A stretch of DNA of 59,223 nucleotides, counting the filler. It is 6 parts of 6 records of this genome, joined end to end, with 100 filler letters (N's around TTAATTAATTAA, not from the genome) between each part and the next. Parts side by side here need not be neighbours in the genome. Positions count along the whole stretch, not along the records: positions 45,081 to 59,223 come from SRR31147125_7001; 5 more parts are not named here. One strand, 5' to 3'. Position 1 is the first letter of the stretch. Each line of letters opens with the position of its first letter. The translations under genes and the position numbers were made by a program. The notes beneath the pieces were generated by a model. It was not told where the DNA came from and did not search any database. It saw only the letters and a list, made by a program, of their open reading frames with translations. Shown piece by piece: positions 40,369 through 59,223 of this stretch.

Positions 40369-41358
40369 TTAATGTAATGATTTTATTGCTTCTACTTCTT
40401 CTTTAAGCAAAGGGAGTACTTTATTTGCATCAGCAATAATCGATACATCTGCAATATTGAATATTGCAGCGTTTGGATCTGTATTGATTGCAATAATTAA
40501 TTCTGATTTATCCATACCAGCGATATGTTGGATGGCACCACTTATACCTGATGCGACATATACACTTGGACGAACTGTTGAACCAGTTTGACCAACGAGT
40601 CTATCTTTTGGTTCAATGGCTGCATCGACAACTGCTCTTGATGCAGCAACTTCACCGCCAGTGATTTCGGCAATTGCTTTAAGTGTTGGAAACATTGTTG
40701 CGACTCCACGACCACCAGCAATAATTAATTTAGCTTTCGTAATATCTACGTGTTTAGATTCACTAACTTTGACATCTAATATTTTAACTTTTGATGTTGA
40801 TTCAAATGTCATTTGAAATGGTTTAACATTAGCTTTTTTATCTTTATCAACTGAAATTGAGAAAACACCAGGTCTAACAGTAGCCATTTGTGGTAATGTA
40901 TCTGGACAAATGATTGTTGCAAATAGATTGCCACCAAGTGCTGGTCGTGTTGCATATAATTCAAGTTTTTCTTCTGTTTCTTCAAAATCAAGTGTTGTTG
41001 CATCAGCAGTTAAACCTGTATCAAGTCTAGCTGATAATCTAGGACCTAAGTCACGACCAAGTAGTGTTGATCCTATAAGTAAAACATCAAATGCATTTTC
41101 TTTGATGACTTTTGTTAATGCTTCTGCATAATATGTTGTATCATATTGTTCTAATTTTTTATCTTCTATAGTAATAATTTCATGTGCACCACATTGTCCA
41201 ATAGTATCTAAGTCTTCTTGATGAATTTTTGAGGACGCTAAAATTGCTGTAATGTTAACGCGATCACCTAATTTTCTTTTGACTTCACTTAATAGTTCTA
41301 AACCTACTGAACATACTTTTTGATGTTTTTGTTCGATAAATACGGCACATTTTCTCAT
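40369..41358 (-). CDS. etfA: Electron transfer flavoprotein alpha subunit
   Basis: TGLTAD, TRPALGGN, PQMATVRPG, VGQTG.TVRP, GISGAIQH. Confidence 0.96.
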   Translation of the reverse strand: MRKCAVFIEQKHQKVCSVGLELLSEVKRKLGDRVNITAILASSKIHQEDLDTIGQCGAHEIITIEDKKLEQYDTTYYAEALTKVIKENAFDVLLIGSTLLGRDLGPRLSARLDTGLTADATTLDFEETEEKLELYATRPALGGNLFATIICPDTLPQMATVRPGVFSISVDKDKKANVKPFQMTFESTSKVKILDVKVSESKHVDITKAKLIIAGGRGVATMFPTLKAIAEITGGEVAASRAVVDAAIEPKDRLVGQTGSTVRPSVYVASGISGAIQHIAGMDKSELIIAINTDPNAAIFNIADVSIIADANKVLPLLKEEVEAIKSLH

Positions 41359-43767: not shown

Positions 43768-43830
43768 CACAAAAAGATAATTTTATTGTTTTTTCACATT
43801 TTTTGCGTTACACTTAATATAGGTGAGATT

Positions 43831-44439
43831 ATGAACGAAATAAAATACCGTCTTCCTAAAAGAAAAGACGGAAAGAAAACTTTTGATCAAATTATTGAAT
43901 CAGCAAAAAAACTATTTTCTAAAAATGGTTATTTGGCGACATCAATTAATGAAATTATTGAAAAATCTGGCATTGCAACAGGTACATTCTATATATACTT
44001 CGATGATAAATTTGCTCTATATACATACATTCTTCAAAGTTATCATACGATTATTAGAAAAAAACTAAATGATGCGATTAAAGATGCTCATACGAGATAT
44101 GATAAAGAAAGACTTGGACTTAGAGCATTCTTAAAGTTTGCATGGGATGATCCACTTGCATATCGTATTATATGGGAATCTATGTTTGTAGATCATGATC
44201 TATTTAAGGATTATTATAAAGATTTTAGTCTACATTACATGCGTGGACTAAAACATTCAGTCGATCAAGGTGAAATTAGAGATGATATTGATTTAGAAAC
44301 ACTCAGTTATATATTAATGGGTATTTCAAACTTTGTGGGTATACAAGTTATGTTTAGAGATACACTGACTGAACAAAAACTTGATTTTATCGTTGATGAG
44401 GCCATGAAGGTATTAAAAGCAGGATTATTTATTAAATAA
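43831..44439 (+). CDS. TetR/AcrR family regulator
   Basis: IIESAKKLF..GY..TSINEI...GIATGTFYIYF; AGGTGAG RBS places the start at 43831. Confidence 0.93.
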   Translation: MNEIKYRLPKRKDGKKTFDQIIESAKKLFSKNGYLATSINEIIEKSGIATGTFYIYFDDKFALYTYILQSYHTIIRKKLNDAIKDAHTRYDKERLGLRAFLKFAWDDPLAYRIIWESMFVDHDLFKDYYKDFSLHYMRGLKHSVDQGEIRDDIDLETLSYILMGISNFVGIQVMFRDTLTEQKLDFIVDEAMKVLKAGLFIK

Positions 44440-44637: not shown

Positions 44638-44673
44638 AAAAACACATCTTCTTTACTTAGAAGATGTGTTTTT
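44638..44673. terminator. Bidirectional terminator
   Basis: 15-bp perfect stem AAAAACACATCTTCT / AGAAGATGTGTTTTT between convergent genes. Confidence 0.8.
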
Positions 44674-44980
44674 TTTATGATTAAATGTTTGTTCAAAGGT
44701 TGCAATTTCATTTAATTGCATAGGTTTAGCATAATAATAACCTTGGAATGTGTGTGCGCCAATTGATTTCAAATAATTGATTTGCTCAATGGTTTCTGTA
44801 CCTTCACAAATGACGTTTAAGCCTAAATCTTTTGCAAGATTAATGACATGTTTTGCAATCGTGAGTTCATCACCCGGCTTATAATATCTAATAAAGGAAC
44901 GATCTAATTTTAGCTTGTTTAAATCAAATTTAGATATATACTGCAATGAAGAATAACCTGTTCCAAAGTCATCAATTGCA
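44653..44980 (-). CDS. EAL-domain protein, C-terminal fragment
   Basis: AIDDFGTGYSSL at the contig edge, KLDRSF, EGTET, QGYYYAKP. Confidence 0.9.
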
Positions 44981-45080
44981 NNNNNNNNNNNNNNNNNNNN
45001 NNNNNNNNNNNNNNNNNNNNNNNNTTAATTAATTAANNNNNNNNNNNNNNNNNNNNNNNNNNNNNNNNNNNNNNNNNNNN
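44981..45080. other. Artificial contig spacer
   Basis: N44-TTAATTAATTAA-N44. Confidence 0.99.
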
Positions 45081-45758
45081 GGTAAAAGCACCTTTTTCAT
45101 GACCAAACAGTTCACTTTCCAATAACGTCTCCGAAAGAGCCCCGCAATTAACAGCTACAATCGGATAATAACGTCGTGAGCTATGACTGTGTATAGCGCG
45201 GGCAATAAGTTCCTTTCCAGTGCCACTCTCGCCACGGATAACAACTGTCGAGTCAGATGGAGCCACTGTTTTTACTAAATTCAATACCTGCTTGATCTGG
45301 GTACTCTCACCGATAATTTCATCAATGTGCGATAATTGTTTGATATTTTGTTGTAACTGTATATTTTCATTTCTCAGTTTGATTTGAGCGGAAGCGTTAC
45401 GAATGAGGCGGCTCAAATCATCAGGATTAAACGGTTTTATCATATAATCATAAGCGCCTTCTTTCAGAGCCTCAATAGCTGTGTCGACAGAGGCATAGGC
45501 CGTCATAATAATGATAATGATATCTTTACTTATTTCATTAATTTTTTTCTGTAATTCCAGTCCATCCATTCCCGGCATTCGGATATCCAACAACACAATA
45601 TCCCACTCTTTATCCTGAAATTGCTGCAATGCATCATAGGCATCTTTTGCAACCCCAGCCGAGTAACCGTCCTCCTCAAACCAATCATAAAGCGATTGGC
45701 GCACGGATTCTTCATCATCAACTATGAGTAAACGAAGATGGGTGTTTTTATTCTCCAT
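45081..45758 (-). CDS. Sigma54-dependent response regulator (NtrC/AtoC/ZraR type), 3' truncated
   Basis: [34 protein letters not shown]. Confidence 0.95.
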
Positions 45759-45772
45759 TTTATGGATCCCTG

Positions 45773-47434
45773 TTAATTCTTGTATAAATTTGAAGTAACT
45801 TTAACTTTTTCATCCAAATCCGGCTCTCTTAGCAAATTAATGGTAAAAATAGTGCCTTTATTCAATTCGGATTCTACATTAATATTACCATCGTGTCTCT
45901 GGATTATCCCATAAACAACGGATAATCCAAGTCCCACTCCTTTCATCTCTTTTTTCGTAGAGAAAAATGGGTCAAATATATTCGGAATTATTTCTTCAGG
46001 AATGCCACAGCCTGAATCCTGAATAATAATCTGAACAGAATCTTGAGAACAGAATGTTTTTACGCGTAATAGCCCCCCATTTTCAAGGGCTTCGATCGCA
46101 TTAACAAGCAAAGCCACCAGAGCTTGTCTGATCTGTCCCCCATCACATAATATCATATCGTTATCACATTCCAGTACCTTTTCTATTTTAATTTCCTTCA
46201 ACTTTGAATGATGGTGTACAAGCATGATACTGGAATCAATGAGATGGTGAAGACGCTCTTTGGCAAAAGTGCCCCCTGCCTGCCTTGAAAAAACAAGCAT
46301 ATTTTTGACAATATCCCCACATCTGGTAATTTCTGCCTTTATTGAACTTAGATATTTTTTTATAAACTCTTTTTTCTCTTCGGGTAAATCACTATTATTT
46401 AATTTTCGCAGGACCAGAGCCGAAAAAGTCAAGGCGCCGGCTAACGGATTATTAATCTCATGCGCAACCGTTGCAGAAAGTTTGCCCAAAGAAGCCAGTT
46501 TTTCCATTCGAATCAGATGTTCCTGAGCTCGTTCCAGCTCGCTCGATTTTTGCGATACCTTTTCCTCAAGTGAATTTGACCATTCCGTTATTTCATGCCG
46601 GGCATTCTGCAGATCCTCTGTCATTTTATTAAAAGAATGTTTTAACTGGCCGATTTCATCACTGCTTTTGATATCAATCCGATAATCCAAATTACCGGAT
46701 GCAATTTCTTCGGTACCAGCTATTAATTTTTTAATGCGTTTTCGCACAACAAAATAGATAAACAGACCAGAAAATAAGGCTACGCCAAGAATCAGCAAGG
46801 CTGCTGATGTTATAGTAGCTCTGCGGGATTCCTGCAAATGCAAGTCTACTGAAGCTAATGACATCTTTATATCAAGCACACCTAATATTTTTTGTTGATG
46901 GGAATGAGCGTGACAGGCGGCATTATAACATTCAGGTTCATTCTTAATTGGATTGATGACTCCCAGTATTCTATGACCATCAGGTGCGCGGTAAATTCGA
47001 CGATAATTTTTCGTTGGTAAAGAGACCAGAGGCTGCTCTTCACTGTGGCATATATTGCATGCCTCTGCCTGCATATCCACTGATGTATTCTTTTCAGAGG
47101 TGATTGTTGAAAAAACAATTTCACCCCGTTTATTGTAAATTCGAATTCCATCGACTCCAGGTTCATTACCAACAGTATTAATAATATGATGCACATCATC
47201 TTTATGATTTAAAAGCATACCATAACGTGTTGACCTTTTGATAATATCACTGGTGCGATCCACATTTTGGTAGACAGTTTCCATTAAATTCGCTTCATGA
47301 CTTTTATAAGTTTGAAAGGCATAAAAACCAAAACTTATCATCATGACAGTCGATAAAGATACAAACAGACGGAAACTAAGCATATGTGCGATTTTATTCA
47401 TCATAGTGTCAGAACGGAAAATTGAGACATTCAA
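45773..47434 (-). CDS. Sensor histidine kinase with periplasmic dihaem-c domain, HAMP, HisKA and HATPase
   Basis: TM1-CNICH...CYNAACH-TM2; [38 protein letters not shown]. Confidence 0.93.
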
Positions 47435-47576
47435 ACATGAATTTAGCTAATAATAATAATAAAGGCGACAAAATACAACCAGTTTATCAGTCAAGATTGG
47501 TCAATATGCAGAAATATAGTGAAATTGGGATAATTAGATGGAAAAATAATAAAATAAACGCATGATTGTGGGGCTG

Positions 47577-48398
47577 TCAACGGTTCATACATTGAAAAAT
47601 TTCGCAAATAATTTTAAAATATGCCCTGGGAGGTATCATTTCTTCGTAATTTGTTAATCGCACACCGCCATCCTGCAGGGTTGGACCCAATTCTTTTGAA
47701 TAGGGACGTGCCGCCTGCTCAAATGTTTCTGTGATGTTGGCATGGTACTGGTTCAGATAATCTTTTGCCTCGCTTCCCTTTAAAAGCTGGTCATACTCTT
47801 GCTTTATCTTATTCGAATAAAGTCGCAAAAACCAGATTTCTTTTTTTTCATCAAAAGATTTCGTATTTAATTGTGAAATCAAATCAGGATTGATTTCTGT
47901 CACCGTACCATTAACAGGGGAAGCAAGTCGAAGAGTGCCGAAATTAGTCACAATCCAGCAAAACATTTTTTCCTCTTTTAATGGTAATCCCGATTGGGTT
48001 AATATTATCTCCTTGACTGGTGGTAAAAAAGTCAGGCAACTCGCGTTTATTCCGATGGATACCTTATTTTTTCCAGTTGGCTTAAAAAACCAGTACTTTC
48101 TACCATAATAGGCATCCGGATCGAATTGATGGTCCAAATGTGATGTCTCATTTAAAGTGATGCTCTTGTTTTGTGCTAATATAGTTGATGAAGTATTGCT
48201 TTCATCTTTCTTTATTTGATCCTTATCTAATGAAAAAGCCTCCTTACCACTTTTCATGATTGCATCAAAAGGGCAATTATCGCAATCCTGGTTTCGATCA
48301 CAGAGTTTGTAATCAATAATTCCAGCTTCCATCCATATACAGGGGACTTCCGAATCCGGCCAAATATTTTTTTTATTTTTAAATCGCACTATATACAC
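47577..48398 (-). CDS. GcvH-fold protein with Cys-rich N-terminal domain, no lipoyl-Lys
   Basis: PCIWM.AG..YKLCDRNQDCDNCPFD; VSIGI, SPVNGTVTEIN; C-terminal TLQDGG. Confidence 0.75.
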   Translation of the reverse strand: MYIVRFKNKKNIWPDSEVPCIWMEAGIIDYKLCDRNQDCDNCPFDAIMKSGKEAFSLDKDQIKKDESNTSSTILAQNKSITLNETSHLDHQFDPDAYYGRKYWFFKPTGKNKVSIGINASCLTFLPPVKEIILTQSGLPLKEEKMFCWIVTNFGTLRLASPVNGTVTEINPDLISQLNTKSFDEKKEIWFLRLYSNKIKQEYDQLLKGSEAKDYLNQYHANITETFEQAARPYSKELGPTLQDGGVRLTNYEEMIPPRAYFKIICEIFQCMNR

Positions 48399-48526
48399 TC
48401 ATTTTATTATCATCATTCATTCTTACCACCAGTCAAGATATTTTACTTTTCAGATTAGTAAGATACGGAGTTTAAAGCTCTTTTAAAACAAGAAATATGA
48501 TTTTATTATCATTAGGGATATTTAAA

Positions 48527-50107
48527 TCACTCAGAGCTATGGCAAAACTCGCATTCTTCAACGCTAAAACTATCCTCATCATTATGACATGTACCACACT
48601 GTTTACCGTCATACAGTTTTTCCATATTTACGGTTCCTAATGCACCGGCACGTACGGGTCTGAGTTTAAACATTTTCAAGTGACATGTTTTACAGTTAGG
48701 TTCATCAGGATCGACATGCGATTCATGATCAAAAGTAACCGGACCGGGACTATCCTCACCAGTCTCAAATGTTACAGGATCAGGCAGAGTCATGTCAGAT
48801 GTAATCACACTTTCAACTACAGTCTCTTCCACAAGAGGCACATTTGAGGATTGTTTTGAAAATCCCAATCCTAATTCAAACACAACAATCAGTAAAAGTA
48901 TACCTAATACCAGAATCACTTTTTTACCGGACGACCCTGCAGCAATAAGCGGTGCAGGATGTCTTTTTTCTTCAGAAACTGACTTTTCCTGATCAATCGC
49001 TGAGGGAAAAACAGGTAAATATTTACAGGCCATCCTGAAAATGAAAAATCCTGCGCTTACTATAGATGCCGTTATCACTAACTCCATCCAGGATGGAATA
49101 TAATTGACACCAAGAGCTCCAGTCATCCCTGTCACACTTACGTTTAATCTGTTTAGCACAAATCCCAATAAAACGAAAATAGAAGCCAGAAAAAGCCCGG
49201 CTGTATTATTACGTATTTTGGGCATGAGCAATAAAATCATCGGTATGATGGCACCTATCAGAATTTCCATTATAAACAGCATACTTTCGGTAGAGCCGGC
49301 AAAAATATACGGTAATGCATGGTTAGCTATTAAGGTCTGAAACCTTAATACAAGTAAAACCGCGAGCACAACAGCAATGGCGCGTCCTAATTTCACCAGA
49401 AGCGAAAATTCCAACTCTTTACCAAAAGCCCTGGCACTTAGATAGGATTCAAATATAACCATTGCAAGACCACCAGCAACAGCTGAAACAAAAAACAACA
49501 GTGGCAACCACTGAGAGTACCAAAGTGGGTGTAATTTATTGGGCACGATAACATACAAGGTGCCTAATGATGATTGATGCAATATGGAAAACAGAACTCC
49601 TAATACGACTATAGGAACAGTAATTTTGTGAATCACACGAAGAGGTTTTTCCCACTTTAGCTTTTCCAGCAACATGGGCGAAAATTCAAGCAAAAGAACC
49701 GTTGTATACAGCATCACGCACCAACCAACTTCAAACATAACCGAATGATGATTCCATTGAATGATTGGATGCCAAACTCTGTAAGGGCGCCCTAAATCGA
49801 ACAAAAGGCCGACAATAACCAATAAATAACCAAGAAAGGCAGTAAGTACTGTCGGACGCGCGATCGGTTTATAATCCTTTAAATTAAAAATGTAAACAGT
49901 TGCCGTCAGGACAAATCCACCAGCGGCTAAACCAACACCAACCAGGATATCAAATCCAATCCAGATTCCCCATGGAAACTGATCGGAAAGATTGGTCGTT
50001 GCTCCCAAACCTTTTGTAATTCGTATAAATGTGGCGTAAAGACCCAAAGTCCATATAATCACTAAAACAGAACGCCAAAATGTTATTTTTGGTATTCGAA
50101 TATTCAT
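48527..50107 (-). CDS. NrfD/HybB/HmcC-family membrane subunit fused to a trihaem cytochrome c7-like domain
   Basis: PWGIWIGFD, DLGRP, SVMFEV, LHQSSLG, NRLNV; an extra TM then FDHESH, CKTCH, CGTCH, CEFCH. Confidence 0.9.
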   Translation of the reverse strand: MNIRIPKITFWRSVLVIIWTLGLYATFIRITKGLGATTNLSDQFPWGIWIGFDILVGVGLAAGGFVLTATVYIFNLKDYKPIARPTVLTAFLGYLLVIVGLLFDLGRPYRVWHPIIQWNHHSVMFEVGWCVMLYTTVLLLEFSPMLLEKLKWEKPLRVIHKITVPIVVLGVLFSILHQSSLGTLYVIVPNKLHPLWYSQWLPLLFFVSAVAGGLAMVIFESYLSARAFGKELEFSLLVKLGRAIAVVLAVLLVLRFQTLIANHALPYIFAGSTESMLFIMEILIGAIIPMILLLMPKIRNNTAGLFLASIFVLLGFVLNRLNVSVTGMTGALGVNYIPSWMELVITASIVSAGFFIFRMACKYLPVFPSAIDQEKSVSEEKRHPAPLIAAGSSGKKVILVLGILLLIVVFELGLGFSKQSSNVPLVEETVVESVITSDMTLPDPVTFETGEDSPGPVTFDHESHVDPDEPNCKTCHLKMFKLRPVRAGALGTVNMEKLYDGKQCGTCHNDEDSFSVEECEFCHSSE

Positions 50108-50136
50108 AATATCTCTTCCTGTCTCTTCAATTGTTT

Positions 50137-50900
50137 TTAACTGTTTGTAATATCATCCAGGCTTTTCGACTGTTCATCGCTATTTTCAAGTTTTATGCGG
50201 CGATTAATTATCCACCACATTCCAAACAAAAGAACTCCGGCAGTGCTGACAATATTGGGGATCTTTGACAAAACGTTCCAGGTTAAAGAGGGGTAAGGAT
50301 CCTCTTGTACATCCGTTGGAAAGCCCAACTCTGCAAATGGAACCGATGATAAATACAGAACCGATGTTCCGCCAGCCTCTTTTATACCGTATATGTGATT
50401 CACATAACGTTTTGGGTCATTCTTTATTCGACGATGAGCTTCCTGAATAAGCTTATCCCGATCACCAAATATGGTCGCTCCGGTCGGACAGGCAGATGTA
50501 CATGCGGGCTGTTGACCCTTTTTAAGAGCTTTATCATAACATAATATACACTTTTGTACTTTTGGCAACGGATTATCCCATTCATATTTTGGGATGTTAA
50601 AAGGGCAGGCAACCATACAGTATCGGCAGCCCATACATTTTTTTCATCATAAATGACAGCCCCTTCGGCAGTCTTTTTCAAAGCACCCACTGGGCATGCT
50701 GAAGCACAGGCAGGTTCTTCACAATGCATACATTGTCGTCGAATGTGCAATCCCTTGCGTTTTTCAATGGCCGTCCAGGTATCGGCCGAAAGTACATTCG
50801 TGGGCGTATCTTTGGGCAAATCATTCATTTCCTTACATGCCAAAACACACGCCTCACACCCCATACATTTCGTCAAGTCTGTAAGAACAGCAGCATTCAT
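50137..50900 (-). CDS. HybA/HmcB-like 4x[4Fe-4S] protein with C-terminal TM; frameshift at the homopolymer near 50638-50644
   Basis: CMGCEACVLAC, CMHCEEPACASACP, (C)MGCRYCMVACP, KCILC..PACTSACP, YG.KEAGGT. Confidence 0.9.
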
Positions 50901-51643
50901 TTTTTATCCGTCTCCTGTGTTTGCGAATCGACAACTGACAAAAAAAGATTCTCAAATTTTGTCCATGTTTCCTGATCCATATTTGTCAGCACACCTTTTC
51001 TGGGTAAGCCACCATCTTGCATCGTTGGCATCAACTGAGGCTGGGGTGTCATCTGATTTAAAAACTCTCTAAAACGTATCACCTCTTGCTTCATCCAATG
51101 ACATGCTTCATCTCCAATTAAAAATTCTTTTAAACTTGAACCAAGTTTGGCTGGTTGTAGTGTCACAGCCCAGGACTTGTCCAGAGGCAAATTGTCCAAT
51201 TGATGTGTATCTTTGTTTAATTCCTGATTAACTTCCTGAATGACACCATCAGCAGGAGATTTTAATTGAATTCTTTTATCCCCTTGTTGAATGGTCATGA
51301 CAGGTTCATTTTTGCTGATTTTTTGCCCTGCAGTTGGCAATACAATACGATCTATCTGTCCCATTGCATTTAAAATGAATCGATCGGCACCAATACGAAA
51401 TTTACCACTTGGCAACAACACATTCCATAAATGGCCTTTATTGACAAAGACACCCTCAGGAAGAAACAGATCATCTTCAGCCCTTGCGACACCATCTGAG
51501 GATCCCGCGGCTAAATTAGAAGCAGGTGCTGTTTTCATAACAGCTACTGCACGCTTTTCCTGCCTGTATTGGATAGCATAATCAACAATTAAGCAGGTTA
51601 AAATCATTGCTACAAAAAGTAACGCAACCATATTCCAGTCCAC
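50897..51643 (-). CDS. Membrane-anchored GcvH-fold protein, no lipoyl-Lys
   Basis: N-terminal TM; GHLW..FRIGAD, LP..GQ, SPADGVIQEVN; C-terminal TMQDGG. Confidence 0.8.
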   Translation of the reverse strand: MDWNMVALLFVAMILTCLIVDYAIQYRQEKRAVAVMKTAPASNLAAGSSDGVARAEDDLFLPEGVFVNKGHLWNVLLPSGKFRIGADRFILNAMGQIDRIVLPTAGQKISKNEPVMTIQQGDKRIQLKSPADGVIQEVNQELNKDTHQLDNLPLDKSWAVTLQPAKLGSSLKEFLIGDEACHWMKQEVIRFREFLNQMTPQPQLMPTMQDGGLPRKGVLTNMDQETWTKFENLFLSVVDSQTQETDKK

Positions 51644-51645
51644 CT

Positions 51646-52278
51646 TTATTTTTTCTGTTCACAATCCGCACAATTAAAAAATTCTTTACAAAATTCTTTC
51701 CATTGTTCATCTGAAAGTTTTCTACCAAAGCCATGCAACAACTCACCTCCATCCTGCATTGCCAAACCCAATTGACCGGCATAATCAGCAATGAATTTGG
51801 CACGTGCACTTTTCAGCCATTTGGTCACTGCGCCTGCATGAATCAAATTTGCCATGTTTTCCTCAAGATTGGTAGCTGCCACCTTCAAAATCCACTTATC
51901 CGTAACAGGATCTGAATTAATTTCAGCCACAACTCCATCAACAGGCATTCTTTGCGTGACAGATCTGTCGCCAATATTGACCTTCCAGGCAATTTCACCC
52001 TGTTGCAAGGTATCGCCAACCTGTGGAAGTTCAAAAGCATCAACATCACCAAACGCTCTTTGGGCAAACTCATCCATCCCAATGTCCACTTTACCCTCGT
52101 CAATTATTTTAACACGAGTATGGCTTGGATGAACGAATTCGGCATTCATAGCAAAGGCAGAATCTTTTTCATTTACTTCGGACACAGCAGGCACAACAGC
52201 CTTTTTGGCCCTTTTCTCATGTAGAAAACTCAAACCAATGAACAAAATAAACATAATTGCGACAATCAAGACAACCAT
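51646..52278 (-). CDS. Membrane-anchored GcvH-fold protein, no lipoyl-Lys
   Basis: N-terminal TM; HPSHT..VDIGMDEFAQ..GDV..ELPQVG, PVDGVVAEIN; C-terminal AMQDGG. Confidence 0.82.
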   Translation of the reverse strand: MVVLIVAIMFILFIGLSFLHEKRAKKAVVPAVSEVNEKDSAFAMNAEFVHPSHTRVKIIDEGKVDIGMDEFAQRAFGDVDAFELPQVGDTLQQGEIAWKVNIGDRSVTQRMPVDGVVAEINSDPVTDKWILKVAATNLEENMANLIHAGAVTKWLKSARAKFIADYAGQLGLAMQDGGELLHGFGRKLSDEQWKEFCKEFFNCADCEQKK

Positions 52279-52338
52279 GATGATTTTTCCTTATAGTATT
52301 TGTTTTTTTGTTTTCGGTTATTTGATTTGTTCACCTAA

Positions 52339-52360
52339 TGCAAAGCAATCACCAGACCAA
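52339..52360 (-). promoter_or_regulatory. Sigma54 -24/-12 promoter candidate
   Basis: Minus strand TTGGTCTGGTGATTGCT (GG-N10-GC), with an overlapping second register CTGGTGATTGCTTTGCA, about 65 bp before the first ATG. Confidence 0.65.
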
Positions 52361-52474
52361 ACTTTGCTTTTTCAATAAAAATCTAAAATAACATCATTTG
52401 GTTTTGTTTTTACATAAATTACACATATCTTAACAAGAGAGTAAATGATCATTTTAAATTAAATACAACTTACT

Positions 52475-52571
52475 GTGTGTTGTTATTTTCAACACACGCT
52501 GTTGAAAATATCCTATTTTTGCAGTAATAAACTGATTTTAATCAGTTAAGAGTGTGTTGCATTTTTCAACA
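52475..52571. promoter_or_regulatory. Two palindromic enhancer (UAS)-like sites TGTTG-N7-CAACA
   Basis: GTGTGTTG-ttatttt-CAACACAC (52475-52497) and GTGTGTTG-cattttt-CAACA (52552-52571). Confidence 0.7.
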
Positions 52572-52825
52572 GCACCTGTTTATATTTTCATCAAGCCCGC
52601 AATTTGCGGTTGTCGATTTTAATTTTAATTGCAGGTTAATAAGAAATTAATTATATTCACATAAATAAAACCTGAAAACTGTGCTTAATTTACTGAATTT
52701 TCTACGTTAATCTCTATGGCATAAACGACATTACAGTTCCAGGCCATGTGATAAATCATCACTACTATACACCGTACGGATTTCAGGAAAACAGTGAATT
52801 ATATCAACATATTTAGGATTAAAAA

Positions 52826-54763
52826 TTGGCTGATATAGGCTATCTGTGTCTCGCTATTTCTCTCGTTCTTGCGGCATACTCCTCAATAATTTATTTCATC
52901 GCAGGCAAAACTAAATCGTTAAATCTTTATACCAGTGCCCAGCGTGCGGCTTATGCCGTCTTTGGATTGGTTACTCTGTCTTCTCTTGCACTCTATTATT
53001 CACTTTATACACGGGATTTTCAGGTTCATTATGTGGCCCAATATTCCAACAGCACGTTATCCTGGTTCTACACCGGTGCTGCATTTTGGGCAGGTCAGGC
53101 AGGCTCCCTCTTGTTTTGGGCCTGGTTGTTGACTATTTTTTCGATCATTGTCATTGTTCAAAACCGAAATCGGAACAAGGAATTACTCCCTTATACAATG
53201 GGTGTCATAAGTGTTACAACCTTTTTCTTTATTTATTTACTGGTCTTTAAATCAAATCCTTTTGAAAAACTACCCTACATTCCACCAGATGGAAATGGTC
53301 TAAATCCGTTATTACAAAATATCGAAATGATCTTCCATCCTCCTGCCCTGTACGTTGGCTTTGTCGGGCTTACTATTCCATTTGCCTTTGCTATTGCAGC
53401 ACTTTTGAGCAAAAAACTTGAAGATCAATGGATAAAAAGCATTCGAAAATGGACTTTATTTTCGTGGCTGTTCCTGACGATTGGCAACATCCTTGGCATG
53501 CAATGGGCCTATGTAGAGTTGGGTTGGGGTGGTTACTGGGCATGGGATCCGGTTGAAAACTCCTCCCTCCTTCCATGGCTTACATGCACAGCCTTTCTAC
53601 ATTCGATCATTGTGCAGGAACGAAAGGGTATGCTCAAAATCTGGAATATATCTCTGATTGCTCTTTCTTTTGCACTTACTATTTTTGGGACCTTTGTCAC
53701 CCGCAGTGGCCTTATCTCTTCTGTGCACGCTTTTGGTGTTTCAGATCTGGGTCCGTTGTTTTTGGGATTTCTGGCACTTATTCTTGTGAGCTCTTTTGGA
53801 TTACTTTATAGTCGTCGTAAATTACTAAACAGCCGTCTCAAAATGGGTTCCTGGAGCTCAAAAGAATCCAGCTTTCTGTTAAATAATATTTTGTTTATGG
53901 CCATTACAATAGGCGTTTTTTTAGGCACAATCATGCCTACCATAACAGAAGCCATTAAAGGGGAGAAAATAACTGTTGGGGCAGATTTTTTTAATCGCAT
54001 GGCTACTCCAATCGGAATGGCTATCTTTCTTCTTATAGGTGTCTGTGCATTATTATCATGGAGAAAAACAAATCTTCGTGATCTGTTAAAAAATTTGGCT
54101 ATCCCCGGTTTTATCTCTCTTGTGACTCTAAGTCTGTTTCTTTTAAAGGGTATTCGACAACCAATGCCACTCATCGCACTGGAAATCGCAATTTTTGCGG
54201 CAAGTACTGTTCTGACAGATTATATCAAAAGTGCGCTTCTCAGGAGTCGCATGGAAAATAAATCCTTTCTATCGACTTTGGTTAGCTTGACATTACGAAA
54301 TAAACGCCGTTATGGCGGAGCCATCGTCCATTTGGGAATGTTAATGTTCTTTCTTGGAATCATAGGTTCTTCCGCATTCAGTATTGAGAAAACAGCAACA
54401 TTGCGCAAAGGTGGGAACCTTGAAATAGGTCGTTACAATCTTCATTATCTGGGGCTCACAAATCAGCATACGCCTCATCATCACATAGATGCTGCTAACT
54501 TTGAAATTTTCAATAGCTCCAAAAAAATAGGCACAATCAGAGCTGAAAAACATTTTCACGAAAATTTTCAGCCAGCGACCGAAGTAGGAATTCATTCAAC
54601 ACTCGCAGATGATTTATATATCATTCTGGCAAATTATGACAAAAAATCTGAATTGGCCACCGTTAGTGTCATGGTTAATTATCTGGTTTTATGGATTTGG
54701 ATTGGTGGTATTGTCATGGTTTTAGGAACGATATTAGCCATGCTGCCAAGATCAATAAAATAA
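52826..54763 (+). CDS. ccmF: Cytochrome c haem lyase
   Basis: W.GQAGSLLFW, GLNPLLQ, HPP, WAYVELGWGGYWAWDPVEN, TRSG..SVHAF. Confidence 0.97.
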   Translation: MADIGYLCLAISLVLAAYSSIIYFIAGKTKSLNLYTSAQRAAYAVFGLVTLSSLALYYSLYTRDFQVHYVAQYSNSTLSWFYTGAAFWAGQAGSLLFWAWLLTIFSIIVIVQNRNRNKELLPYTMGVISVTTFFFIYLLVFKSNPFEKLPYIPPDGNGLNPLLQNIEMIFHPPALYVGFVGLTIPFAFAIAALLSKKLEDQWIKSIRKWTLFSWLFLTIGNILGMQWAYVELGWGGYWAWDPVENSSLLPWLTCTAFLHSIIVQERKGMLKIWNISLIALSFALTIFGTFVTRSGLISSVHAFGVSDLGPLFLGFLALILVSSFGLLYSRRKLLNSRLKMGSWSSKESSFLLNNILFMAITIGVFLGTIMPTITEAIKGEKITVGADFFNRMATPIGMAIFLLIGVCALLSWRKTNLRDLLKNLAIPGFISLVTLSLFLLKGIRQPMPLIALEIAIFAASTVLTDYIKSALLRSRMENKSFLSTLVSLTLRNKRRYGGAIVHLGMLMFFLGIIGSSAFSIEKTATLRKGGNLEIGRYNLHYLGLTNQHTPHHHIDAANFEIFNSSKKIGTIRAEKHFHENFQPATEVGIHSTLADDLYIILANYDKKSELATVSVMVNYLVLWIWIGGIVMVLGTILAMLPRSIK

Positions 54764-54796
54764 AAAACACATACAAACTTTAACATACTATTAAAT

Positions 54797-55234
54797 ATGA
54801 TTGAAATTTTCTCTTATTTGCTGATTTTGACGACCTGTCTTTATGTTGTGGCTCCCTTGCTGGCACGCCAAAAAATGTCACTTGAAAAGACAGATCAGAA
54901 CGGTGAAAACCTGCTTGACCTTCACCATCAAAAAAGACTCATTGCCGATACAATAGCTGATTTGGACTTTGATCTTGAAATGGGGCAATTGGCACAGGAA
55001 GACTATGCTGATTTATTAAAAAATCAGCAGGAAAGACTGACACGTATTGATTCAAAATTGAAAAACAAAACCGGCACCTCTTTTGAATCATTGCAAAACA
55101 AATTGGAAGCTGAAATCGCCCGGGAAATACAAAAAAATCAACCAGCAACGGATTTCTCTTGCAAAAAATGCGGCCATCAGTTACAAGCTACTGATAAATT
55201 TTGTCCCAACTGTGGTACAAAGCACGAAAAATAA
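54797..55234 (+). CDS. CcmI-like membrane protein with C-terminal zinc ribbon
   Basis: TM, I.DLDFDLEMG.L..EDY motif, CKKC...FCPNCG. Confidence 0.7.
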   Translation: MIEIFSYLLILTTCLYVVAPLLARQKMSLEKTDQNGENLLDLHHQKRLIADTIADLDFDLEMGQLAQEDYADLLKNQQERLTRIDSKLKNKTGTSFESLQNKLEAEIAREIQKNQPATDFSCKKCGHQLQATDKFCPNCGTKHEK

Positions 55235-55275
55235 TAAAGTGGCTAAAACAAATTATAAACCGATCAGAATTACTT

Positions 55276-56496
55276 ATGTTAAAAAAGAATACTTTAAAAA
55301 ATATCCCCTATCGTGGATATTCGACTATCCATTTGGTTTGTTTTCTTTTGATTGTTTTTACTTGTTTCCTTCCCGCACATTCGCAATCAAAATCCAATAT
55401 AATGGGAACTGTTTTAAATGCTTCCCGTGACAGCACCTCAGTCGCCAGCATTACGGTTCACTTGCAGCAATTAAAAAGTGGTGAATCTGTACCACTTGAA
55501 TTAAGCCAGACAAAAGCAAATCAAAAAGGTAAATTCACGGTTACGGTGACTGAACCGGATACAAACGATACCTATGTTGTGGCAGTTGATTACCAGGGTG
55601 TACGTTATTACAGTGATGGCACATCACTTGGATCGTCCGCTGATCGCATGACCCAGAACATTGTTGTTTATGATTCAACACAAACAGCGGATATGGTAAC
55701 CACACTGATGCACCATATATTTATAGACGATATGGGAAAATCAGCAACTCTTCGTGAAACCAGAATACTTAACAATCCCAGTCAGTACACCATTACAAAG
55801 ACTTTTGAGGATAAAATTGCCGGACCTGCGACTTTACGTTTCCGTCTACCCCGGTCAGCCCAAAATTTCACCCCAATGTCAACCAGATTTGAACATGAAT
55901 TAATCAAACTTGATCAATATGTTTATGACAAAGGGATTATTGCACCTGGAAACCGTCAAATATCCTATCTTTATGAATTGCCATGGAAAAAAAATCAGGC
56001 TGCAGCCTCTATTGATATAACCCACGCGACTCGTTCGCTGGATGTATTTGTCAGTAATCGTGATTTAGCCATATCCTCTCCACAATTAAAAGATCAAGGA
56101 CCTTTTACGATTCGGGGAGTGGAATATCGCAGGTATGGAGCTGCAAATGTCGCTGCAGGAACTGCAATCGAGTTCTCTTTACTCCGATCCGGCTCTGCAG
56201 AACAATCACCATTTTGGGCCATTACATTAACGTCCCTTATTTTGGTATTAGGATTATTTCTTTCTTCCTTACGAAAATCAGTTGTCCTGACAAAAGCACC
56301 TTCTGTAAATCTGTCTGTCCTTACTGAAAGAAAAAAAGAGATCATTGAACTCATTGCCGCTCTGGATATGAATTCAGATAAAAGTGCAGATAAAAATATG
56401 CAAAAGAGAAGAAAAGAGCTCTTTGAAGAATTACAGTCTACTGAAATCCAGTTACTGGAAAGGTCAAAAAAACAGAAACCAAAAAAAATCAAATGA
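55276..56496 (+). CDS. Ccm-associated exported beta-sandwich protein with C-terminal TM and IAALD-type helical tail
   Basis: Signal peptide, carboxypeptidase-regulatory-like GTVLN..V.L...G.F...YQGV.Y, TM, IIELIAALD. Confidence 0.6.
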   Translation: MLKKNTLKNIPYRGYSTIHLVCFLLIVFTCFLPAHSQSKSNIMGTVLNASRDSTSVASITVHLQQLKSGESVPLELSQTKANQKGKFTVTVTEPDTNDTYVVAVDYQGVRYYSDGTSLGSSADRMTQNIVVYDSTQTADMVTTLMHHIFIDDMGKSATLRETRILNNPSQYTITKTFEDKIAGPATLRFRLPRSAQNFTPMSTRFEHELIKLDQYVYDKGIIAPGNRQISYLYELPWKKNQAAASIDITHATRSLDVFVSNRDLAISSPQLKDQGPFTIRGVEYRRYGAANVAAGTAIEFSLLRSGSAEQSPFWAITLTSLILVLGLFLSSLRKSVVLTKAPSVNLSVLTERKKEIIELIAALDMNSDKSADKNMQKRRKELFEELQSTEIQLLERSKKQKPKKIK

Positions 56497-57194
56497 TCCT
56501 TGTTGAAAATATAAGCAAAACATTTGGTGCTGTTCAGGTTCTTCACGACATAAATTTCCATATAAAAAAGGGAGAGTTTGTTACCCTTCTTGGTGTTAAC
56601 GGAGCCGGCAAAACAACTCTGATTCGAATTTTAGCCACATTAGCTCGTGCCACCCAAGGCACAGCCCGCATTGCTGGTTATTCCTTGAAAAAAGAAAAAA
56701 ATGATATTCGTCAGCAAATTGGTGTAATGAGTCATTCTACATTTCTTTATGGCGACTTGTCAGCTGAGGAGAATCTGCGTTTTTATAGCAAGATGTATTC
56801 AGTCCCGGATTATGAACAACGAATCAATGAGTTATTGGAACATGTCAATCTGGCATCCCGCCGGTATGATCTTGTCCGCACCTTTTCGCGAGGCATGCAA
56901 CAACGTCTTTCTTTAGCAAGAGCCATCCTGCACAATCCGCAAATACTTTTATTGGATGAACCTTTTGCAGGACTTGACGTAACAGCCACCAAAATTTTGA
57001 CTGAATTGTTACACGAATATGTAGAAAACGGCATTACAATTCTCCTGACAACTCATGATATACACTATGCTCTGAACAATGCTCAGCGGGTAATCGTTAT
57101 CAATCAGGGTCAGGTAGCAAAAGACGTATTTACAGCAAATATTTTGCCGGATCAAATCACTCACATCCTGGAAAACATCGCATACAAAAACTAA
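56493..57194 (+). CDS. ccmA: Haem ABC exporter ATP-binding subunit
   Basis: GVNGAGKTT, FSRGMQQR, LLLDEP; context. Confidence 0.93.
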   Translation: MILVENISKTFGAVQVLHDINFHIKKGEFVTLLGVNGAGKTTLIRILATLARATQGTARIAGYSLKKEKNDIRQQIGVMSHSTFLYGDLSAEENLRFYSKMYSVPDYEQRINELLEHVNLASRRYDLVRTFSRGMQQRLSLARAILHNPQILLLDEPFAGLDVTATKILTELLHEYVENGITILLTTHDIHYALNNAQRVIVINQGQVAKDVFTANILPDQITHILENIAYKN

Positions 57195-57195
57195 T

Positions 57196-57873
57196 ATGAA
57201 ATCTTTTGAACAAATACTGGCCATCTTGCGCAAGGATCTTTTACTGGAACTCCGCAGTAAAGAAATAATCATTTCTATGATGGTCTTTGCGTTGATTGTC
57301 GTGGTTATATTCAACTTTGTTTTCGATCCCGGTTCAAACCAGATTCGAACAACAGCACCTGGAATCTTGTGGGTGGCTCTCACGTTTGCCAGTAATCTCG
57401 GATTGAGCCGTTCCTTTGCCAGAGAACAGGAACAAGGTATGATGCAGGGGCTCATGATCTGCCCTATTGATCACAGTCTGATCTATGTGGCAAAAGTTCT
57501 GGGTAATATCATTTTTATTACTATTGTACAATTAATAACGCTTCCCATTATGATTATCCTTTTTGATCTATCGGTGGGACAGGTAATTTTACCTCTTTTG
57601 CTGGTCCTTTTTCTGGGCACACTTGGTTTTACAGGCATTGGTACCTTATTTTCAACCATCTCTGCCAATACCAAATCACGTGAAGTTATGTTGCCTATTC
57701 TTCTTTTTCCAGTTTCAGTACCGGTTATCCTGGCTTCTGTCAAAGCCACATCCTATCTTCTTGCCGGAAAAGATGTTAGCCAAACCTTCTCATGGATCCG
57801 TCTATTAATTGGATTTGATGTTCTCTTTCTGGTTACATGCTTTTTATTGTATGAATATGTGCTGGAAGAATAG
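57196..57873 (+). CDS. ccmB: Haem exporter permease
   Basis: KDLLLELR, APGILWV, RSFARE, LPILLFP. Confidence 0.95.
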   Translation: MKSFEQILAILRKDLLLELRSKEIIISMMVFALIVVVIFNFVFDPGSNQIRTTAPGILWVALTFASNLGLSRSFAREQEQGMMQGLMICPIDHSLIYVAKVLGNIIFITIVQLITLPIMIILFDLSVGQVILPLLLVLFLGTLGFTGIGTLFSTISANTKSREVMLPILLFPVSVPVILASVKATSYLLAGKDVSQTFSWIRLLIGFDVLFLVTCFLLYEYVLEE

Positions 57874-57993
57874 TTACCTGTTTTTTTAATCGAATAATAC
57901 AAGAACATATTTTTTTCACAAAAACCTTTTTATAAAAATAATGGAAATCCATTCACTTAAGCCTTAATTATCTGCGGACACTTTTGACACACC

Positions 57994-58707
57994 ATGGCTT
58001 TGAAAAGGATTAATTTTATGAATCGTAAATCAGACAACTTGTTTTTAACCCTGATCTTTTTAACCTATGTAGCCATATTGACAGCTCTCTATTTTGCCCT
58101 CATTTACGCACCAACAGAGCAAACAATGGGAGATGTGCAACGAATTTTTTACTTTCATGTTCCGTCGGCATGGGTGGCATTTCTGGCTTTTTTCATCGTG
58201 TTTTGTGCAAGTATCGCCTTTCTCCGTACTGGAAAAGAACATTGGGACCAATTGGCAGCCAATTCAGCCGAAATTGGTGTTTTATTTATCACCCTTGTTC
58301 TCCTCACAGGACCCATGTGGGCCAAACCTGTTTGGAATACATTTTGGACGTGGGATGCGCGCTTGACCACCTCCTTTGTATTGTGGCTTATTTATGTGGC
58401 TTATTTAATGCTTCGCAGCTATGTATCAGATAAAGAACGTGGTGCCCGATTCGCCGCTGTCTTTGGCATCATTGGCTTTATGGATGTGCCCATCGTTTAC
58501 ATGTCCGTTCGCTGGTGGCGCACATTACACCCGAGTCCTGTTATTGGTGGAGGTGATGGAAGTGGGCTGGCCCCTAAAATGGTAACAACTCTTATGATTT
58601 GTCTCTTTGCCTTTTCACTTCTTTTTACAACTCTGCTGATTTTACGTTATAAAACAGCTATTTTAACTCGTGATCTGAATAAAATTAAATCCAATATTGA
58701 CAACTAA
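57994..58707 (+). CDS. ccmC: Haem chaperone-loading membrane protein
   Basis: IFYFHVP, WAKPVWNTFWTWDARLT (WWD), WWRTLHP. Confidence 0.96.
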   Translation: MALKRINFMNRKSDNLFLTLIFLTYVAILTALYFALIYAPTEQTMGDVQRIFYFHVPSAWVAFLAFFIVFCASIAFLRTGKEHWDQLAANSAEIGVLFITLVLLTGPMWAKPVWNTFWTWDARLTTSFVLWLIYVAYLMLRSYVSDKERGARFAAVFGIIGFMDVPIVYMSVRWWRTLHPSPVIGGGDGSGLAPKMVTTLMICLFAFSLLFTTLLILRYKTAILTRDLNKIKSNIDN

Positions 58708-58721
58708 CCAGTGAGGATATC

Positions 58722-58853
58722 ATGGGAAATCTTGGTTATCTTTTTATTGCCTATGCAATTATATGGACAGCGCTATGTATTTATATTTTCAATATTGCCA
58801 AAAAGTTATCGCTGTTAAGAAAAGAAATTAATGTTCTCCAGAATAAGAACTAA
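58722..58853 (+). CDS. ccmD: CcmD-family small membrane protein (43 aa, not in the ORF track)
   Basis: MGNLGYLFIAYAIIWTALCIYIFNIAKKLSLLRKEINVLQNKN after ccmC, GAGGA RBS. Confidence 0.85.
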   Translation: MGNLGYLFIAYAIIWTALCIYIFNIAKKLSLLRKEINVLQNKN

Positions 58854-59223
58854 ACAGTACATTAAATAAAAATTATTGAACGGTATGTCAATTGAATGTT
58901 AACTCAAATGAGCTTATTCTGCAGTAAATTTTTAGAAAAGCTGTCTTTTTAGAACGGTTGCCCCTCTCTGTCTAACTTTAGCATCACTTGCGCTGCTGCA
59001 TTCAGCAAACAAAATTTAACCCTTTGCAAATATTTAAATAAATGTACAAAAATTACCTTCAGGCTAATTGCGGCTGCATCAGGTGAATGCAGTGTTAGAT
59101 GAACTAACTCTATTATTTAAAAAAATCAATTGGTTGTAAACATTAAAGTTGGATTTAATTTTCTATTTTCTTTCAATTTATTTTACAACTTTGCCAATTC
59201 TTGACCAACGTATTTTATTTTGT

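Follow-up and report, generated by a model that had tools for sequence, protein, structure and literature searches.

The window analysed here is a stretch of 59,223 nucleotides, filler included, in which six parts of one genome are joined, and its last part (positions 45,081 to 59,223, from SRR31147125_7001) begins with a gene cluster that appears to form a sigma54-controlled operon. Seven genes, all on the minus strand and with short gaps or overlaps between them, extend from 52278 down to 45081. They code, in this order, for two proteins related to the glycine cleavage H-protein GcvH (G1 and G2), an iron-sulfur (FeS) protein of HybA/HmcB type, an NrfD membrane protein fused to a trihaem cytochrome c7 domain (NrfD-c7), a third GcvH-related protein (G3), a dihaem sensor histidine kinase with a HAMP domain, and a sigma54 response regulator. 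Open reading frame (ORF) calls together with Pfam and NCBIfam assignments bear out this order, which a preliminary description of the sequence had given. The cassette recurs on hundreds of metagenome contigs and spans at least four phyla. Because position 45081 is a contig end, the sequence does not establish a self-contained operon as first described; in relatives a Peptidase_M54 gene follows that of the regulator.

Proteins and control sites encoded at the locus

NrfD-c7 (48527-50107, 526 residues) has 10 predicted transmembrane (TM) helices and an 11th that leads to the c7 domain. Its NrfD part matches PF03916 with 101 bits (gathering score 25.8). The best NCBIfam models for this part are HmcC (337.1 bits) and HybB (301 bits), which stay below their equivalog cut-offs of 550 and 450, respectively. 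The c7 domain is recognized by PF14522 (46.2 bits, cut-off 24.8) and by TIGR04257, "nanowire_3heme" (62.8 bits, cut-off 40), and has its CXXCH motifs at residues 472, 504 and 519. Lysines and arginines number 20 on the cytoplasmic side and 6 on the periplasmic side, which puts the amino terminus of NrfD inside; with the 11th helix, this orientation would place the trihaem domain outside.

The FeS protein gene (50137-50900) is read as two overlapping ORFs that score 176 and 68 bits with the HmcB model, below its equivalog cut-off of 420. They carry eight and seven cysteines which, with one more in the frameshifted codon, make 16, enough for four [4Fe-4S] clusters. A carboxyl-terminal TM helix spans residues 125-143 of the second ORF and is followed by the sequence NRRIK. 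What separates the ORFs is a -1 frameshift within seven consecutive A (50638-50644). In the full-depth Logan contig from the run that is the probable source, and likewise in contigs of a relative with ~91% identity, an additional base follows position 50637 and restores D-E-K-K-C-M-G-C, where four relatives read D-x-x-K-C-M/I-G-C. Since these independent contigs have eight A, the frameshift is an assembly error in a homopolymer and the gene is intact. The protein starts 11 residues before its first cysteine motif and has no twin-arginine (Tat) signal; the signal is also missing from its relatives in the genome loci and from 52 of 55 close metagenome relatives. The homologues from Desulfobacterota carry a clear Tat signal, RRxFLK.

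The kinase (45773-47434, 553 residues) is organized as a first TM helix, a periplasmic domain, a second TM helix, HAMP, HisKA and HATPase. The 178-residue segment between the two helices contains a CXXCH motif at residue 126 and a CX4CH motif at residue 169, and has no sequence match in the Protein Data Bank at E<=10. A CXXCH and CX3-4CH pair spaced by ~43 residues is kept in 38 of the 42 NrfD-linked kinases matched with E<1e-100. Among 43 weaker matches, encoded mostly beside HdrA/MvhD-type genes or in loci lacking NrfD, haem motifs are found once, in a truncated kinase that is itself linked to NrfD (L014). This distribution suggests that the haem motifs of the kinase go with the FeS-NrfD (NrfCD) pair.

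The last gene in the window's operon (45081-45758) codes for the first 226 residues of an NtrC-type sigma54 activator with a REC domain (110 bits) and the beginning of Sigma54_activat (101.5 bits over positions 1-79 of 168), the sequence being cut by the contig end after ...GHEKGAFT; the remainder of the AAA+ domain and the carboxyl-terminal HTH would be encoded past this point. The regulator is full length in relatives and is then followed by Peptidase_M54, identified in every relative tested (Pfam scores of 50-99 bits, cut-off 24.4). The M54 zinc site (H130, E131, H134, H140, C141, C146, C165 and C168) is invariant in 37 sequences. The peptidase gene starts at most 20 nt after the end of the regulator gene in 67 of 78 same-strand pairs, and M54 is found in 99 of 105 Desulfobacterota genomes that have a strong G match (Fisher p 7e-48, uncorrected for shared ancestry). 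It is also kept in clusters that have no G gene nearby, which ties it to the activator more than to G and weakens the idea that it serves solely to process the G proteins.

The two first genes code for G1 (51646-52278, 210 residues) and G2 (50897-51643, 248 residues), each with an amino-terminal TM helix, a match to GCV_H (E 4e-11 and 9e-12, respectively) and an MQDGG tail; G1 has in addition a carboxyl-terminal CX5CX2C motif. G3 (47577-48398, 273 residues) is soluble, has no TM helix and combines an amino-terminal CX12CX5CX2C motif with a GCV_H match (E 2e-5) and a TLQDGG tail. The Pfam GCV_H scores of G1, G2 and G3 (43.3, 45.5 and 25.1 bits) exceed the cut-off of 22.2, and their scores with the GcvH equivalog TIGR00527 (42.7, 40.9 and 19.8 bits) remain far from its threshold of 115.85. 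An AlphaFold2 model of G2 built on 51 relatives has a pLDDT of 86.6 and is matched by Foldseek to the solved H-protein 1onl_A (E 1.3e-10, TM-score 0.90 on target length), so that the G proteins are predicted to have the GcvH fold. In alignments to solved H-proteins the position of the lipoyl lysine is taken by Asp in G2, by Arg or Asp in G1, and by Phe in G3, and no lysine is conserved in this hairpin across the 51-member G alignment. The term "lipoate-less" of the preliminary description is therefore apt, and lipoylation of the window's G proteins, as judged from these alignments, is rejected.

G members extend beyond the H-protein fold by ~70 carboxyl-terminal residues that comprise a long helix, a loop with two glycines, and a last helix with a conserved W and F/L. 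The GG pair, mostly preceded by Asp, is invariant in 51 of 51 aligned members, and in the two models obtained (G2 and G3) confidence is lowest in its loop. The G3 model has pLDDT below 50 at residues 1-11, 17-35 and 50-88, and the amino-terminal Cys4 module is not confidently modelled. The hydrophobic helix followed by a basic stretch in G1 and G2 points, by the positive-inside rule, to a topology with the amino terminus outside and the carboxyl terminus inside. Signal peptides are absent from G3, M54 and the regulator.

Searching 1.84 billion protein representatives, clustered at 50% identity, with a G-family profile gave 13,461 matches at E<=0.001, 6,425 at 1e-10 and 1,791 at 1e-30. The ordinary GcvH genes of four test genomes reach no better than 4.5e-29 against this profile, so that 1,791 is a fair lower bound for the size of the family. 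A G match at 1e-30 is found in 150 of 401 sampled Desulfobacterota genomes. Word-indexed protein searches returned 21 relatives for G3 and 7 for G2; as the exhaustive profile search found many more, these low numbers reflect limited sensitivity and not rarity. Public sources name the relatives "glycine cleavage system H protein" or give them no name, and a protein Atlas search returned only "hypothetical protein / GCV_H" clusters, which agrees with the earlier supposition that similar loci exist under a misleading glycine cleavage H label. In 14 of 95 clusters related to P0109 (P0109, P0174-P0182, P0189, P0195, P0200 and P0201), G forms a fusion with HisKA-HATPase, an arrangement that would fit a role as adaptor or sensor. 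G is also joined to Fer4-MvhD-Molydop_binding (P0106, P0119); in P0048 three G domains are combined with an FAD oxidase and CCG, and P0265 is the one fusion of G with an AMP-binding enzyme.

A sigma54-type -24/-12 promoter is predicted on the minus strand at 52339..52359, ~80 nt before the G1 start, from two overlapping matches to TGG-N8-TTGC[AT]. The element TGGTCTGGTGATTGCT at 52359-52344 has both the GG and the GC elements. Of 95 regions preceding a first G gene, 36 contain the motif, with ~2 expected (0.061 per kb), in agreement with the sigma54 operon proposed initially. Further upstream, a 38-nt direct repeat with a spacing of 77 nt provides two candidate activator sites on the minus strand. 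Copy 1 (52475..52512) contains the exact palindrome TGTTGTTATTTTCAACA (52478-52494) and copy 2 (52552..52589) the exact palindrome TGTTGCATTTTTCAACA (52555-52571), both of the form TGTTG-N7-CAACA. Palindromes of similar form that precede the first G gene in L002, L003, L163 and L001 are suggestive only. Three more TGG-N8-TTGC[AT] matches occur on the window's other contig, at 40933, 40660 and 39080 of the minus strand. Scans for terminator-like and sigma70-like motifs inside the operon gave results at chance level.

The operon abuts a run of N at 44982-45080 placed around the TTAATTAATTAA linker, a six-frame stop. This run joins separate contigs, and hence the EAL fragment at 44653-44946 and the TetR gene at 43786-44439 are not neighbours of the operon. 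Over 45081-45341 the contig depth is ~2,900, as against 35 elsewhere in X1, with many loose ends over the region of the conserved AAA+ motif, which is probably why the assembly breaks there. On the other side, a divergent cytochrome c maturation cluster (52826-58707) codes for CcmF, a 145-residue zinc-ribbon/CcmI-like ORF, an unassigned 431-residue ORF (55201-56496), CcmA, CcmB and CcmC; CcmF is the divergent neighbour in L003 too. A Pfam scan of 16 ORFs between 43786 and 58707 yielded no hydrogenase, molybdopterin, GcvP/T/L or lipoate-ligase family, as had been noted before for the hydrogenase large subunit and the other three. The ~91% identical relative, from a second study, keeps the operon and differs from it at 724 positions over 7,820 in Logan contigs, which reach about 9.4 kb past position 45081. 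In the regulator gene 31 of 34 differences fall at third codon positions (among the differences listed, 40 of 712), a bias that fits purifying selection.

The cassette in other genomes

The genes co-occur across phyla in the same order. The exact order of the window is found in metagenome-assembled genomes of KSB1 and "Cytophagia" (L001-L003). Acidobacteriota have G-G-FeS-NrfDc7-kinase-regulator and Ignavibacteriota/Bacteroidota have G-FeS-NrfD-G-kinase-regulator. A motif scan with one genome per species provided 71 loci, many of them on short contigs, that contain M54 in 47 cases, the kinase in 48, the regulator likewise in 48, FeS/NrfD in 22-24 and HdrA-like proteins in 20. Forty further Desulfobacterota regions, hand-chosen from the listed G hits, are mostly arranged as G-FeS-NrfD-G-G-kinase-regulator-M54 or M54-G-G-FeS-NrfD-tetrahaem-kinase-regulator. 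Here NrfD is unfused and a separate gene for a tetrahaem cytochrome lies beside those of FeS and NrfD.

At least 544 relatives were confirmed in a metagenome search seeded with NrfD-c7. Among the best 80 of these loci, counted only where the flank sufficed, the FeS gene is upstream of NrfD in 61 of 61, the kinase downstream in 37 of 38, the regulator present in 26 of 27, M54 in 22 of 25 and G nearby in 29 of 49. The 76 NrfD-to-kinase clusters divide into 17 with a c7 fusion, 14 with a separate cytochrome and 45 with neither (some upstream flanks being short), so that in 45 of 76 the kinase is the sole encoded c-type haem protein.

A second arrangement is found in Syntrophobacteria and relatives (L043, L033, L029, L030, L064 and L051). 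Downstream of kinase-regulator-M54 there is a canonical TGGCAC-N5-TTGCT promoter and then a Cys-rich G with two CX12CX5CX2C modules, followed by Hdr-type genes that code for HdrA-like proteins of 1,000-1,500 residues and for MvhD, FrhB-like and CCG partner proteins.

Pfam scans of flanking ORFs covered 50 of 74 ORFs of the closest loci, 49 ORFs of the Syntrophobacteria loci and 61 of 97 large ORFs of the later sets. No molybdopterin oxidoreductase was found in the three scans. The 61 large ORFs include a single NiFe hydrogenase large subunit, which belongs to a divergent neighbouring operon (L170) with its own Tat-signal FeS protein, NrfD and 9-haem cytochrome. Homologous loci are in this respect like the one first described, which was said to have no catalytic subunit.

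Several loci have additional electron transfer genes at their borders. In L170 (294-5081), and also in L171 and L173, genes divergent from a signal-less G-G-FeS-NrfD set code for the large subunit of a NiFe hydrogenase, a cytochrome with 9 or 13 haems, an FeS protein with a Tat signal and another NrfD. A second G-G pair followed by a 737-residue fusion of a 13-haem cytochrome c and cytochrome b561 (CbcL-like) is located in L005 (2320-6813) and L015 (2902-6768), just upstream of G-FeS-NrfD-G-kinase-regulator-M54. Some soil-type loci (L213:4052-4459, L216:8699-9016, L214/L215/L217 and L224) have, ahead of FeS-NrfD-kinase-regulator-M54, a gene for a small monohaem cytochrome c that carries a signal peptide.

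Possible roles of the cassette

The reading favoured here, at a probability of about one half, is that of a conserved sigma54 cassette in which a quinone-to-periplasm wire resembling Geobacter Cbc4 and Hmc has its redox poise read by the haem kinase and regulates its own synthesis. Its components, in order, would be the G proteins, the HybA/HmcB-like FeS protein, NrfD (here with c7), the dihaem kinase, the NtrC-type activator and Peptidase_M54, which in the window would lie off the contig end. NrfD would exchange electrons with the membrane quinone pool, and the FeS protein and the c7 haems would carry them on the periplasmic side as a Cbc4/Hmc-type wire for which no catalytic subunit is needed. 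The two haems of the kinase would be poised by this wire, or by a periplasmic cytochrome pool that the wire feeds, and would set the kinase activity. The phosphorylated activator would bind the two TGTTG-N7-CAACA sites and open the -24/-12 promoter ahead of G1, by which the whole unit is proposed to be autoregulated. The G proteins would be cytoplasmic, non-lipoylated adaptor or sensor domains of the signalling unit, not components of glycine cleavage, with G1 and G2 tethered to the membrane and G3 carrying a Cys4 metal site. The M54 peptidase may work with the activator.

The haem motifs of the kinases, the haem counts of the clusters, the G-kinase fusions and the sigma54 motif together favour a single functional unit. 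The clusters in which the kinase is the only haem protein fit a flow of electrons from NrfCD to the kinase haems. The preliminary description had proposed a redox-sensing circuit in which NrfD-c7 reports to the kinase and the G proteins act as adaptors. The pairing of NrfCD with the haem kinase, which is family-wide, and the G-kinase fusions lend it partial support and make it more than a guess; the absence of a catalytic subunit, which it noted, is normal for Cbc4-type modules. Adaptor function of the G proteins is likewise compatible with the kinase fusions, yet they are not specific partners of NrfD-c7, considering that they occur in HdrA/MvhD loci and that 20 of 49 metagenome loci have no G close to NrfD.

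Several points weigh against the favoured reading. The link between FeS/c7 and the kinase haems is drawn from sequence and gene context, and a two-component system beside the operon it controls is common, so that adjacency alone is no sign of electron exchange. The FeS protein has no Tat signal and no partner with such a signal in the operon, which fits poorly with its proposed place on the periplasmic face of NrfD. G is missing near NrfD in the 20 loci mentioned, also accompanies cytoplasmic HdrA/MvhD complexes and is in some cases fused to MvhD or to FAD-oxidase/CCG proteins; a role as subunit or assembly factor is as compatible with the data as one in signalling. TGTTG-N7-CAACA at up to one mismatch occurs twice in the window, with 3.4 occurrences expected from shuffled sequences; there is no excess, and it is only the exactness and placement of the palindromes that speak for them as putative activator sites. 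The co-occurrence statistics, finally, are not corrected for shared ancestry.

A bolder version of the favoured reading can be put forward tentatively. FeS-NrfD(-c7) might be the input wire of a new type of two-component system and not a respiratory enzyme, tapping the quinone pool solely to poise the two kinase haems. G might be a second, cytoplasmic redox input, and M54, translationally coupled to the activator, a means to reset the system by proteolysis, for instance by cleaving the activator, or the G tail at its invariant GG pair. The core formed by G, M54 and the sigma54 system would then govern both membrane (NrfCD, CbcL-like) and cytoplasmic (HdrA/MvhD) complexes in anaerobes.

The strongest alternative is an ordinary respiratory module. 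FeS-NrfD-c7 would be a Cbc4/Hmc-like bulk quinol:cytochrome c oxidoreductase delivering electrons to acceptors in the periplasm or outside the cell, the kinase would sense another periplasmic cue and do no more than switch on the operon, and G and M54 would be assembly or maturation factors. The best matches of the window proteins are indeed to the energy-transducing HmcB/HmcC and HybA/HybB, and the c7 domain is of periplasmic-shuttle type, scoring above the TIGR04257 cut-off. Cytochrome c maturation genes divergently adjoin the operon in the window and in L003, and multihaem cytochromes flank L005, L015 (the 13-haem cytochrome b fusion), L016 (two), L128, L143, L153, L171 and L214. The Tat-signal FeS protein and separate tetrahaem gene of the Desulfobacterota versions are as Cbc4 has been described, modules of the quinol:cytochrome c kind, Geobacter Cbc4 among them, normally do without a catalytic subunit, and low potential induces the sigma54-dependent respiratory unit cbcBA. 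Against this, 45 of the 76 clusters code for no cytochrome or catalytic partner besides the haem kinase, and a kinase gene comes after that of NrfD in 37 of 38 loci. In Geobacter, a different organism that is likened here by description, deletion of cbcS is reported to leave growth on Fe(III) and Mn(IV) like that of the wild type. A Cbc4/Hmc-like respiratory module with its own regulators is a possible explanation that remains about as likely as the circuit idea; the module may carry bulk respiratory flux or serve sensing alone.

It is unlikely that the module faces the cytoplasm, with the signal-less FeS protein and the G proteins on the cytoplasmic face of NrfD and the quinone pool linked through them to a donor or acceptor in the cytoplasm, as in the cytoplasmically oriented SoeABC. 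The missing Tat signals in the 52 of 55 FeS relatives and in the genome loci would be accounted for, as would the predicted N-out, C-in topology of G1 and G2, the lack of signal peptides in G3, M54 and the regulator, and the association of G relatives with cytoplasmic HdrA/MvhD complexes. However, an NrfD with its amino terminus inside, 10+1 helices and c7 outside has its usual FeS docking face on the periplasmic side, NRRIK after the carboxyl-terminal helix fits a periplasmic FeS domain as in HybA, and the FeS homologues of Desulfobacterota carry RRxFLK signals.

Very improbable is a function of G as lipoate- or sulfur-carrying arms, like LbpA of the sulfur-oxidizing Hdr-like system, in an operon that handles a thiol or sulfur substrate. 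The predicted GcvH fold, the partnership of LbpA with Hdr-like complexes, the proximity of G relatives to HdrA/MvhD/CCG genes in Syntrophobacteria and the single fusion of G with an AMP-binding domain are in line with such a function, but they are opposed by the Asp, Arg or Phe at a lipoyl-Lys site that is not conserved among 51 members, by 42.7 bits against the GcvH cut-off of 115.85, and by the lack of a lipoate ligase among the 16 window ORFs scanned. That the operon is decaying and the FeS gene a pseudogene, which its two overlapping ORFs and the -1 frameshift in the A7 run could suggest, is rejected on account of the extra base in the contigs of the source run and of the ~91% relative and of the motif conserved by relatives at the frameshift site.

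The cassette probably lets cells read and adjust the redox state of their membrane, and its occurrence has several implications. At least 1,791 G representatives carry the label "glycine cleavage system H protein" yet have no lipoyl lysine and lie beside redox regulators, and metabolic reconstructions of anaerobes that count them as GcvH are wrong. Bacterial archaemetzincins gain a fixed genomic partner in the sigma54 activator, making their long-open function testable; should the input-wire reading be true, it would be the first function assigned to M54 peptidases in bacteria. Where deletion of an "orphan" NrfCD/Cbc4-type complex causes no respiratory phenotype, the complex may serve to feed a haem kinase. 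A control module shared by cytochromes of extracellular electron transfer and Hdr-type complexes is also suggested.

Relation to known systems

Cbc4 of Geobacter sulfurreducens, which among described systems has the closest architecture, is composed of the anchored NapC/NirT-type tetrahaem CbcS, CbcT with four [4Fe-4S] clusters and the membrane subunit CbcU, and is regarded as a quinol:cytochrome c oxidoreductase with a physiological role that is unknown (10.1101/2025.04.14.648717; PMC13591261). As described there, it shares with the window a three-part quinone-to-periplasm module of multihaem cytochrome c, four-cluster FeS protein and membrane subunit, and dispenses with a catalytic subunit. 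Unlike in Cbc4, the haem part is in the window a trihaem c7 fused to the carboxyl terminus of NrfD and the FeS protein has no Tat signal; the closest resemblance is shown by the Desulfobacterota relatives with their separate tetrahaem protein, Tat-signal FeS protein and NrfD. G, the haem kinase and M54 are not mentioned in the passages on Cbc4 by which, and not by sequence, the two systems are compared. HmcBC and HybA/HybB of Escherichia coli hydrogenase 2 have in common with the window the 10-helix NrfD and a four-cluster FeS protein anchored by its carboxyl-terminal helix. In contrast to Hmc and hydrogenase 2, the window has neither an HmcA or hydrogenase partner nor a Tat signal, and its c7 fusion is new.

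The cbcBA operon of G. sulfurreducens (BccR) is described as sigma54-dependent, beginning with two hypothetical proteins and induced as the redox potential falls; it contains a response regulator and an inner-membrane quinone-linked cytochrome. It would resemble the window in its sigma54 promoter, two leading proteins, response regulator and quinone-linked inner-membrane component, and differ in its electron module, a dihaem b plus heptahaem c cytochrome instead of NrfCD. GSU0071 and GSU0072 are called only hypothetical proteins in the papers that name them. A paper on the Desulfovibrio sigma54 regulome (PMC4641369) uses none of the terms NrfD, HmcB, peptidase and lipoyl. A literature search of main texts, without supplements, found no description of the cassette as a whole or of its G/M54/sigma54 core, as the preliminary description had anticipated for its function, and none of the fixed M54 position after a sigma54 activator or of its linkage to G.

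GcvH-like LbpA proteins are known partners of Hdr-like (sHdr) complexes. The G proteins differ from GcvH and LbpA by the absence of the lipoyl lysine and by their amino-terminal TM or Cys4 modules and carboxyl-terminal extension of ~70 residues. They are encoded beside a sigma54 two-component system and M54 instead of GcvPT and lipoate ligases. The M54 proteins of the relatives carry the archaemetzincin signature HEXXHXXGXXHCX4CXM...CXXC, as given in PMC3427221. In the favoured reading, the output of the kinase may follow the redox state of the membrane quinone pool, as it does in ArcB and RegB. The kinases ArcB and RegB sense quinones directly, via cysteines or a binding site. Sensing by the cassette would, unlike theirs, make use of a separate NrfCD-type module and of c-type haems.

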